From Spirochaetota bacterium (GTDB taxonomy: Bacteria > Spirochaetota > UBA4802 > JAFGDQ01): a stretch of DNA of 64,000 bases. Both the position numbers and the translations under genes were made by a program. Below are positions 30,321-61,827 of the stretch, one piece after another. Below the pieces are notes generated by a model. That model did no database searches. It was not told the origin of the DNA and saw nothing but the letters and a program-made list of their open reading frames with translations. Location of the stretch: NCBI GenBank assembly GCA_043803405.1, contig JAZDKB010000004.1, forward strand, positions 128,001 to 192,000. Direction: 5' to 3'. Each line of letters begins with the position of its first letter. Position 1 is the first letter of the stretch.

Positions 30321-30425
30321 TAGAGTTATTGCAAAACTGTCATTCCGACCGAAGGGAGAAATCTCTCGATTGCTATGAGATTTCTCCCTTCGGTCGAAAT
30401 GACATTGAGATATGCAACAAGTCTA
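30321..30425. mobile_element. MITE-like element with long internal palindrome
   Basis: Ends TAGAGTTATTGCA / TGCAACAAGTCTA (11/13 inverted match); inner arms TGTCATTCCGACCGAAGGGAGAAATCTC / GAGATTTCTCCCTTCGGTCGAAATGACA (30338-30404). Confidence 0.6.
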
Positions 30426-49958: not shown

Positions 49959-49989
49959 GTAAATATAAATCATTAAACGAAGGCTTTTA

Positions 49990-50030
49990 AAAACGATGGG
50001 TTGCGTAACGCACCCATCGTTTTATGTTTT
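49990..50030 (+). terminator. Intrinsic terminator after etfA
   Basis: AAAACGATGGG...CCCATCGTTTT hairpin followed by a T-rich tract. Confidence 0.7.
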
Positions 50031-50036
50031 TGCCTG

Positions 50037-50263
50037 TTAGCCGGTAAACTGCCACATTGAAAATAGTGAATGAATTGATATTTTATAATTGAATTCCATA
50101 TCAAAATTTTTTGCGGAATCAGGCCTTTCTATGCAGCTTTTTTGTGTTTTAAAAGGCTTTTGCTTTAGGCCTGAAAGGCGTCCTCAAAAATTTTGATATG
50201 GAATTCAATTATTGACACTATTAACTACTAAAGCCAAATGTGATGCTGTAGTAGCCCGGTTAA
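50037..50263. other. Long rod-like palindromic element, copy A (structured RNA or MITE candidate)
   Basis: 27-bp perfect inverted repeat 50085-50111/50186-50212 around TGCGGAA...GTCCTC; imperfect outer pairing. Confidence 0.65.
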
Positions 50264-58672: not shown

Positions 58673-60169
58673 CTACATATATTTCGGCTTAGTATAGGAG
58701 TACATATCGTGCACTCCGCCTTCCATCTGGGCGGATACTGATCTGAGTTCGAACCTGAGTTCTCCGGCATATAATAGTCCGTGAAGTGTCGGGATGTCCT
58801 TTGCGCCCATATCCTGGAACGAGTGCTTTAACCCCTGTATCAGATACTGCACATAATCGAATAGCGATCCCTTGTCCATAACGGCTCCCGAAACTCCCTG
58901 GGCAACTTTAATTTTGCTGTCCTCTGCAAAGTATCTCTTTGCCCCGCCTTCTTTCATTGCTTCGAGCGAGGCCATGCCTCTGTATTTTTTAAGGCGTACG
59001 CCGTTTTCGTAAAAATATTCCCCCGGAGCTTCATCGGTTCCGGCAAACATGGAGCCCATCATAACGGTTGATGCTCCGAGCGCGAGTGCTTTTGCGATGT
59101 GCCCGATGTTGGCAATGCCCCCGTCCGCAATTACCGGGACGCCGGTTTCTTTTGCGTACTTAGCGCATCTGTATATGGCGTTTGCCTGCGCCCTGCCCAC
59201 AGCCATTGTTGTCTGTGTTGTGCAGATTGAGCCCGGGCCCATGCCTATGCGGAGCGCGTCTGCGCCTGCGCTGATAAGGTTTGCGCATTGGTCCTCGGTT
59301 ACCACATTGCCGCAGATAACGTCCAGTTCCGGATATCTCTTTTTAATATATTTCAGCATTTCTATCTGGAACACTGAGTTGCCCTGCGCGGAATCAATAA
59401 TAATTACATTGACTCCTGCGCTTGCAAGCGCTTCCAGCCTGTCCTTCGATTCATCCCTTGTTGAAATGGAAGCGCCTACCATAAGCTGTTTTTTATTATC
59501 CTTGGATGCAAACGGATATTCCCGGTTAGTGTGAAGGTCGTTCCTGCTCATTAAAGCTACAAGATTTCCATTCTTGTCTACAATGGGAAGCTTCCCCTTC
59601 TTCGATTTTTTCAGTATCTCGTTTGCTTCTTTTAATGATATGCCTTCAAGGGCAGTTACAAGGTTGGTAGTCATTACTTCGCCGAGTCTTTTTTCCCTGT
59701 CTGTTTCAAAATCGATATCGCGGTTTGTGACTATTCCAAGAAGCTTTGAATTGAGCTTTCCGTTTTCAGTGATCGGTATACCGGAAAATCCGTATCTTTG
59801 CCTGATTTTATCTATTTCAGATATTTTGAAGTCAGGAGAAAGAACAATAGGATTGTTTATAAAACCGTTTTCATATCTTTTTACTTTTTTTATCTCAACA
59901 AATTGTTCTTCAATAGTGTTATTATAATGGATGAATCCGACGCCGCCCAGAAGGGCAAGTCCTATTGCCATTTTCGATTCGGTGACCGTATCCATTGGAC
60001 TTGATGAAAGAGGTTTTTTTATTTTTATGTTCTTTGTAAGGTTTGTTTCAAGGGAAACGTCGTCGGGATTAAAGTCGATAAATCCCGGTAAAATAATGAA
60101 GTCGTCAAAGGCAAGTCCTTTATGTGATCCGAATATTTCCGCCGCCGAGCTGCCGTCTTTATTTGCCAT
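58673..60169 (-). CDS. guaB: IMP dehydrogenase
   Basis: [11 protein letters not shown] pair, [14 protein letters not shown]. Confidence 0.96.
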
Positions 60170-60384
60170 GTGAAATACCCCTGGTTTAAACTGTTAATTT
60201 TGATATAAAGTAATAACTTATTTTTAAAAATTCAAGCAAAAATATATAAAATAAGCAATAGACAGGAAGCTTGTTTATTGTGCAATTATTTTATGTTGAC
60301 ACATGTAAGGAATATTTTAAGTTTTTAATAACGATGATATTATTATCATAAAGAAATTAGATTGTTATTCTGATAACAGCAATA

Positions 60385-60583
60385 TAAACTGAAGATTATC
60401 AGAATTCATCTTAAAAAACCGATGCTTTAAAAATTAGATAGACTTAATAAAAATTTCCTGCGGAACTCGGACAACACTTGGAAAAACTCAAACAGTCCTC
60501 GAAAATTTTTATTAAGTCTATCTAATTTGAACATCGCAAACTATTTACAACTTAAAGATGAGTTTTGATTATGTTTCGGCTTA
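60385..60583. other. Long rod-like palindromic element, copy B (structured RNA or MITE candidate)
   Basis: 26-bp perfect inverted repeat 60431-60456/60503-60528 around TGCGGAA...GTCCTC; outer stem with G-U pairs. Confidence 0.65.
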
Positions 60584-60708: not shown

Positions 60709-61827
60709 ATGCAAAGGAAATTTATCGTTTTTATTTTATCTGTGCTGGTTGTAATTATCTGTTCCGGCGGACTGCATGCGGCTGATACAATAAAACTGGG
60801 AGTTGCGGGCGCGCATAGCGGGGACCTTGCGTCCTACGGTATTCCGTCTGTGCATGCGGCCGAGCTGGTAGTGGAAGCAGTTAATGCAAAGGGAGGCATA
60901 CTCGGAAAAAAAGTTGAGCTTTTAATAGAGGATGATGCATGCAAGCCGGAAATATCGACCAATACTGCAACAAAGCTGATATCCAGGGGAGCTAAAGTGG
61001 TCATGGGGCATATATGCAGCGGCGCCACTAAATCGGCTCTGGGAATTTATAAAGACTCGAAAATAATATGCATGTCCCCGTCTGCGACCAATCCTCCGCT
61101 TACAAAAAGCGGCGAGTATCCTAACTTTTTCAGGACAATAAGCCCGGACGATGCGCAGGCGCGGCTTGAGGTTAATTTTGCCGTCAATGTTCTTAAGCTC
61201 AGAAGGATAGCTGTTATACACGACAAGGGGGATTACGGCAAAGGCCTTTCTGAATTCGCGAAGGATTTTATCGAGAAATCCGGAAAGGCAAGGGTTGTGC
61301 TTTACGAAGGAGTGACCCCGGGCGCTGTGGATTACTCTGCGGTTGTGCAAAAGATAAGGCATTCCGGCGCAGAAGGCATAATATACGGCGGTTATCATCC
61401 GGAAGCTGCAAAAATTATAATGCAGATAAAAATTAAAAGAATGAATGTTCATTTTATTTCAGATGATGGAGTAAAGGATGACACATTTATAAAAGTGGCC
61501 GGCAAATATTCCGAAGGGGTATACGCGACAGGCCCTAAGGACACATCAAAAAATTCGCTTGCGCTGAAAGCCGCAAAGGATCACAGGGCGAAATACGGTT
61601 CAGATTATGGCGCATTTTTTCTGAATGCTTATGCTGCAACGCAGGCCCTGCTTAACGCAATTCAGAAAGCAGGCAGCACCGATTACAATGCCGTGTCCAA
61701 AGCGTTAAGAAAAGAATATGTTGAAACTCCCCTTGGCAAAATAAGTTTTGATAAACGCGGAGATGCGATCGGAGTCGGTATCTCTATGTACCAGGTTAAG
61801 AACGGGGTTTATGTGGAAGTAAAATAA
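60709..61827 (+). CDS. livK: Branched-chain amino acid ABC transporter substrate-binding protein
   Basis: Signal peptide, EDDAC, GHICSG, SPSATNP, YGGYHPEA. Confidence 0.92.
   Translation: MQRKFIVFILSVLVVIICSGGLHAADTIKLGVAGAHSGDLASYGIPSVHAAELVVEAVNAKGGILGKKVELLIEDDACKPEISTNTATKLISRGAKVVMGHICSGATKSALGIYKDSKIICMSPSATNPPLTKSGEYPNFFRTISPDDAQARLEVNFAVNVLKLRRIAVIHDKGDYGKGLSEFAKDFIEKSGKARVVLYEGVTPGAVDYSAVVQKIRHSGAEGIIYGGYHPEAAKIIMQIKIKRMNVHFISDDGVKDDTFIKVAGKYSEGVYATGPKDTSKNSLALKAAKDHRAKYGSDYGAFFLNAYAATQALLNAIQKAGSTDYNAVSKALRKEYVETPLGKISFDKRGDAIGVGISMYQVKNGVYVEVK

Follow-up and report, generated by a model that had tools for sequence, protein, structure and literature searches.

The palindrome between guaB and a livK-like gene in the 64,000-nucleotide stretch analysed here (the window) is built in three layers, with 15-bp terminal inverted repeats (the shell) outermost, perfect 26-bp arms inside them and a 42-nt core at the centre. 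On balance, we consider this element (copy B) to be a copy of a dispersed composite repeat, a non-autonomous mobile DNA element with a core of the single-stranded DNA (ssDNA) type, rather than a regulatory RNA gene. That it belongs to a dispersed DNA repeat which moves, or has moved, is very probable, and in the guaB-livK gap it is a lineage-specific insertion rather than a conserved regulator.

Table 1. Features of copy B, its neighbouring genes and copy A, in window coordinates.
Feature	Position	Strand	Basis or remark
Copy A, 27-bp arms around the long-subtype core (50112-50185)	50085..50212	.	
Copy B, element proper	60402-60565		164 bp, terminal repeat to terminal repeat; inside 60385..60583, the interval of the sequence-only reading
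Copy B, left terminal inverted repeat (outer shell)	60402..60416	+	13/15 identity to the family end GAACTCATCTCAAAA
Copy B, left arm, 26 bp	60431..60456	+	100% complementary to 60503-60528
Copy B, conserved core, B subtype, 42 nt	60459..60500	-	Match to model R2 and covariation
Copy B, first direct 9-nt repeat, ACTCRRACA, defining the B subtype	60465..60473	+	Sequence
Copy B, second direct 9-nt repeat, B subtype	60486..60494	+	Sequence
Copy B, right arm, 26 bp	60503..60528	+	Complement of the left arm
Copy B, right terminal inverted repeat (shell)	60551..60565	-	Decayed, 11/15
Neighbour guaB, IMP dehydrogenase (outside the element)	58673..60169	-	TIGR01302, 639 bits, above cut-off
Neighbour livK-like substrate-binding protein (outside the element)	60709..61827	+	NF011933, 292 bits, below the cut-off of 477

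The perfect arms of copy B, the core it shares with copy A and the outward continuation of the pairing were all as described in an earlier, sequence-only reading of the window. Copy B has the B-subtype layout with two direct 9-nt repeats, which recurs in copies from three other genomes (G005, G021 and G013). Model R2, built without sequences from the source genome (G000), matches it on the minus strand at 60448-60510 with 43.8 bits, and on that strand the core is predicted to fold with a GA/GCA loop, a GGA/TCC helix and a pyrimidine-rich bulge. The fold of the two copies gave z-scores of -7.3 and -7.6 against shuffles, 0/200 of which were as low. A triloop is missing from copy B itself, and its two strands lie within 1 kcal/mol of each other as DNA and within 4 as RNA; energy alone picks no strand. 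The TTGACA box at 60296, which had been noted upstream of the element, belongs to no called sigma-70 site; six such sites were called, versus 3.8 +/- 2.2 in shuffles.

The element had been taken to occur in two copies, and this proved a large underestimate: nhmmer (E<=0.2; profile from 27 seeds) found 48 distinct loci in the source genome, 33 of them with both core halves. Those 33 comprise 22 long, eight short and three B-subtype cores, copy A being long and copy B of the B type, and all three subtypes retain the same two loops. The elements measure 160-213 bp with no transposase gene inside, and the family accounts for 17 of the genome's 43 perfect inverted repeats of at least 24 bp with spacers of up to 120 nt. 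Dozens of copies are carried by each of two congeners (G001 and G002, which with the source genome make up the three genomes of the genus), 9/141 genomes in a sample of the phylum match, each in the window's order, and a near-identical short-type copy is present in a Spirochaetes record (L021). The copy at C36:53589 is mixed, with a left arm of the long type and a core and right arm of the B type, a combination suggestive of recombination within the family. Family copies are themselves interrupted at C13/C50 (C13 start, C50 end) and at the C53 end by another multi-copy element, present also at C10:2613-3923 in the source genome, whose 436-aa protein we take from its motif to be IS110-like and which occupies unrelated sites as well. 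At L230, L205, L213 and L393, either the core or the direct repeat of the B type is present in tandem.

Insertion sites in the congeners are consistent with movement. Of the matches to the copy A region in G001 and G002 (41 and 42), two in each represent the flanking genes, and neither genome has an element at the syntenic site; likewise, G002 has no element between guaB and livK, whereas synteny is missing at the copy B site in G001 and G005. The empty sites that the sequence-only reading proposed to look for are therefore present, for copy A in both congeners and for copy B in G002, with exact filled/empty junctions unreadable because the genes are only 66-78% identical to those of the relatives. 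In copy A itself the 27-bp arms are perfect and the shell ends have decayed beyond recognition (8/15 and 9/15 matches). A separate terminator-like palindrome (window 49980-50030) follows etfA immediately upstream of copy A.

With one mismatch allowed, the shell-end motif occurs 55, 57 and 102 times in G000, G001 and G002 (reversed control, 0-1) and no more than five times in any of 119 other genomes of the order. A shell end lies within 110 nt of 17/26 cores, on both sides in seven, versus 15/326 control gaps with one on both sides, the filters of this comparison having retained 26 of the 33 full copies. Both ends are visible in 25/86 elements, which gives the family termini of the MITE type. 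The end-to-end length is 201-202 bp in 14 of these 25, and TA stands on both flanks in 13. A target duplication of 3 or 4 bp could be ruled out, as direct repeats of either length flank 0/25; the flanks are frequently inverted rather than direct, and the TA may therefore belong to the shell end.

The shell ends share 8-11 of 15 bases with the ends of the genome's own IS1182 (transposase NF033551, 457.8 bits) and 13-15 of 15 positions in purine/pyrimidine pattern, and IS1182 relatives within the phylum also have similar ends. Movement of the shell by an IS1182-type transposase is accordingly plausible, falling somewhat short of probable. None of nine inspected IS1182 loci has a core at its ends, and outside the genus IS1182-like ends flank 3/234 cores versus 2/570 controls. 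DUF772 is present in G003 and G004, which have no element match, and was not found in the carriers G001, G002 and G005, all from incomplete genomes. No IS1182 was found in viral contigs; the shell end matched viral sequences 59 times, in no case with a second end in inverted orientation. In G001 (C119), G002 (C3) and the source genome (C4), inverted shell ends lie far apart, and these proved to belong to distinct small elements that surround ordinary genes. Elsewhere in the source genome (C44:27041-28755; L186, L363) an intact IS1182 lies within another palindromic repeat, whose hairpin it appears to have replaced, in the manner reported for IS1272 (PMC5678879).

These observations could also be read as an ordinary IS1182-derived MITE, in which the transposase reads the ends only, while the inner rod is a passive passenger that was picked up a single time and is now decaying. 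A constant length, flanking TA and ends like those of IS1182 fit such a history, as do many shells of only 46-103 bp with the inside missing and variable breakpoints, which look like deletion products; furthermore, degenerate ends and DNA structures both serve as substrates of IS1182-type transposases (PMC12056078). We nevertheless think this unlikely, because the core is kept across about nine phyla, mostly without the shell, the three subtypes hold on to the same two loops, and the arms remain perfect while their sequence turns over.

That turnover is evident at 24 pair positions in 86 elements, where departures from the subtype consensus affected both sides and kept Watson-Crick pairing in 313 cases, affected a single side in 72, and affected both sides without pairing in 10, counts that are inflated by related copies and not independent. 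Arm sequence had been regarded as free; by eye, however, the left arm of copy A matches the long-type consensus at 20/24 positions, so the arms are passed on by descent and diverge through compensated changes. The excess of two-sided over one-sided changes points to the copying of one arm from the other rather than to selection on an RNA stem. The plus-strand G-U wobbles noted in copy B are real and do not extend to a family-wide bias, since arm wobbles number 12 on the plus strand and 25 on the minus (86 elements); terminal-repeat wobbles number 22 and 17, respectively (25 elements). Perfect arms of at least 20 bp are uncommon outside the genus (15/244 cores).

The core reaches much further than the shell. 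A search with GAGGACTGTYTGAG-N(4-30)-GAGTTCCGCAG returned at least 126 GTDB stretches, at least 122 metagenome stretches and three viral ones, spanning about nine phyla among the matches listed (80 GTDB titles). Among 58 diverse copies, 93.9% of cells were paired, with 86 two-sided changes, although 25 fixed bases are set by the search pattern, so that the free evidence lies in the flanking pairs and the loop only. Covariation, which the sequence-only reading had proposed to assess, is strong: 0/500 shuffles reach the observed pairing and slid registers drop to 30-49%. Covarying structure alone fails to separate RNA from ssDNA, as argued in PMC5737381. The strand signatures are more informative. 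On the GAGGA strand, which is the minus strand of the window, the triloop cGNAg is found in 138/252 unique cores (in 107 as the called apical loop), compared with eight on the other strand, and RNA-type cGNRAg and cTTCGg loops are found in six and none of the 252. G.T outnumbers A.C by 24:2 at outer pairs 1-3 and by 34:4 at inner pairs 0-3, while outer pair 4 opposes this bias (G.T 13, A.C 20). The GNA triloop is a stable DNA loop and tandem sheared G.A pairs are a stable DNA motif (PMC10085684). The apical triloop and wobble signatures thus favour folding as minus-strand DNA over plus-strand RNA, and it is fairly probable that a protein reads the core in that form.

Alternatively, the core may be a structured RNA motif, a site for protein binding or for processing, that rides on the repeats and acts on neighbouring transcripts, for example by stabilising or terminating them. 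Its strong covariation is in keeping with such a motif, tandem G.A pairs occur in RNA too, and the plus strand of copy B carries three GGA words. In addition, 28/44 copies follow a gene that is read on the TGCGGAA strand, and 11/44 are in convergent gaps, versus 129/1244 of the background gaps. However, all four classes of gene context are occupied (17, 11, 10 and 6 of the 44), including 10 copies in divergent gaps, triloops stand where GNRA or UUCG tetraloops would be expected of RNA, and wobbles are nearly absent from the arms (37 of about 2060 cells). Nor is there an Rfam match: at gathering scores the window yielded tRNA only, sets of 20 and 10 loci yielded nothing matching the element, and the surroundings of copy B gave sub-threshold hairpin matches only, in keeping with the earlier statement that the element matches no recognised family. 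Three of 244 cores also form in-frame parts of ORFs that show homology on either side of them; judged by their motifs, the proteins are presumably a glycosyltransferase, RecJ and a P-type ATPase. We therefore regard the RNA motif as improbable, and the plus-strand structured RNA that had been offered as one branch of the sequence-only reading is disfavoured by the loop and wobble signatures, the four contexts and the in-frame copies. In one contig from a viral collection (L004:2700-3216), a core with long outer inverted repeats seems, by eye, to lie inside a topoisomerase-like frame.

Our data also suggest that cores are exchanged. The same shell also occurs in another family of the order, where it encloses a doublet of palindromes bearing TGTC tags, with both ends in G231 and G195 and one end in G219 and G021; these palindromes resemble the CGTC/TGTC REP class of PMC3733652. 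In the source genome a different, twin-GGA core lies between arms built in the same way (at least 20 bp in 10/14, median 26), and at C4:15708-15887 it sits in a full shell of the variant also found at the short core C48:21430-21627, with a shell end at 2/14 twin-GGA cores only. One shell with a TGTC doublet and one arm build with a twin-GGA core make the cores appear interchangeable, and this pairing of one shell and one arm build with different cores renders directly testable the origin both of composite bacterial repeats and of arms that remain perfect as their sequence changes. About a dozen other sites in the source genome have a twin-GGA core with perfect 23-29-bp arms. A palindrome with 28-bp arms at 30338-30404 of the window starts with a TGTC tag, belongs to a different class (CGTC/TGTC-type REP) and misses the strict Ssn consensus. 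The sequence-only reading had thus recognised a real element and overlooked its IS1182-like shell, the spread of the core across phyla and core exchange.

A search for an enzyme associated with the core gave no recurrent candidate. All-against-all clustering of six-frame ORFs at 129 and then 250 loci revealed no recurrent nuclease or transposase beside it, and a Pfam scan of 148/176 selected neighbour ORFs (the 28 omitted being mostly recognised genes or duplicates) revealed no recurrent enzyme; HTH_Tnp_1 and HNH were found once each and DUF2971 three times. PF01609, PF05598, PF13358, PF13586 and PF01797 gave no hit in G002, the carrier richest in the element, with 36 model matches and 102 end matches; PDDEXK_2 gave none in the source genome. 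No link to the core was found for Y1_Tnp, GIY-YIG, DDE_Tnp_1, DUF772, DDE_3, DDE_Tnp_1_2 or Phage_integrase, and no full core adjoins the RAYT, GIY-YIG, integrase or DDE loci of the carriers. A phage-integrase-family gene (C9:721) has a half copy at its 3' end, an arrangement that did not recur. In two genomes of one genus (L390 and L391) a 150-aa ORF faces the core head to head; this ORF matched no NCBIfam family and has no homologue in the source genome.

These searches bear on a further reading, that of a REP/REPIN-type element moved by RAYT (HUH) or Ssn (GIY-YIG), with the shell as a preferred landing site. The ssDNA hairpin signature of the core would agree with it, as would GC-rich inverted core pairs that flank unrelated genes at five distinct loci and the two Y1_Tnp genes of the source genome (L001, C7:56247; L002, C18:118177). 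Yet both of these genes are flanked by other REP-like palindromes, and 10 Y1_Tnp and 12 GIY-YIG loci in five carriers have no adjoining full core; a single GIY-YIG gene adjoins a half copy, and no copy adjoins its orthologue in G002. Furthermore, the Ssn motif consensus matches 0/252 cores and neither window copy, as a strict pattern that also missed eight TGTC-tagged loci and the window palindrome I2. We consider this reading very unlikely, and the linked HUH/RAYT genes that the sequence-only reading proposed to look for were not found beside the core in the source genome or the carriers, within incomplete genomes. The first Y1_Tnp gene is followed by a 21-bp tandem repeat.

Several GC-rich copies (L003, L054, L066, L073 and L082/L083) bracket or abut defence-like or orphan genes (DUF2971 three times, 8xMP and, by eye, an McrBC-like pair), and Abi_alpha and TIR adjoin others. 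Against plasmids, a GC-rich copy was matched mainly at its outer end, in Ralstonia records (best 40 of 130 without annotation).

The composite mobile DNA element that we favour would most likely work as follows. The shell, judged by the similarity of its ends, would be a MITE whose termini go back to those of IS1182-type elements and which a DDE transposase of that type mobilises in trans. In a single-stranded state the minus strand would fold into a rod with a core containing sheared G.A pairs and, in most relatives, a cGNAg triloop; this core may be the docking or cutting site of a putative ssDNA-processing protein that moves it between shells and hosts. The arms may be kept identical by fold-back copying of one onto the other, as the excess of two-sided changes would suggest. 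The many copies, the lineage-specific sites, the covariation and the lack of an Rfam match uphold the earlier proposal of a non-autonomous hairpin element read by a protein as to the kind of element; no protein partner was found in these searches.

More tentatively, the core could possibly be a cross-phylum ssDNA recognition module with a putative enzyme of its own, parallel to REP/RAYT and SRM/Ssn, that plugs into different carriers. In this genus the carriers might then be IS1182-like shells whose 26-bp arms correct themselves, and in Betaproteobacteria inverted pairs on either side of defence-like genes, a reading we hold just as tentatively. If so, bacterial mini-elements are built from interchangeable shells and cores. 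Definition of the REP and SRM motifs led in both cases to a new enzyme that processes ssDNA, and a core that is widespread and tightly conserved, with no description in the libraries and freely readable papers searched, could serve as bait for a third.

Comparison with known systems places the element among MITE/REP-like composite repeats. As described in PMC3184786 and PMC10969869, MITEs share with it a short, non-coding sequence, terminal inverted repeats, a long stem-loop, dispersal and absence from relatives' syntenic sites; terminal repeats, small size, many copies and filled and empty sites, by which MITEs are recognised, are all found here. It differs from them in that no clear target duplication was seen, no transposon with the same ends was found, and the core is maintained in different phyla and seems exchangeable. 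IS1272 is a member of the IS1182 family. Its transposition replaces inverted repeats, according to PMC5678879. IS1182 ends are, like those of the element, 15-16 bp long with a similar pattern, and insertion without direct repeats would fit the inverted flanks; however, only 8-11/15 bases are identical and the nine inspected IS1182 loci lack the core.

REP/REPIN sequences and CGTC-tagged REPs, as covered by PMC3337134 and PMC3733652, are also dispersed palindromes likely read as ssDNA, with inverted doublets and intragenic copies. The element instead has no GTAG/CGTC tag at the stem foot (the word CGTC occurs inside the long-subtype core only, and at the foot of neither arms nor core), no flanked RAYT gene and a rod with two internal loops in place of a simple stem-loop. 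Ssn-related motifs (SRM/NTS), cross-phylum ssDNA hairpin motifs read by sequence and structure (PMC11893778), are the best model for how the core might work, but their consensus is unmatched in the cores and no Ssn-type gene adjoins one. Rickettsia palindromic elements, which PMC10969869 describes as palindromic repeats of about 150-200 bp, some in frame in unrelated genes, differ from the mostly intergenic copies found here, a distinction drawn from description, not sequence. The Betaproteobacterial repeat BRE is likewise a dispersed repeat; four core words were absent from two of its supplement files, and the listed BRE sequences that were shown (PMC3110155) look unrelated. Because the defining features of REP/REPIN and SRM are missing, we file the element as neither; in its working it resembles a MITE that contains a module of the REP or SRM kind.
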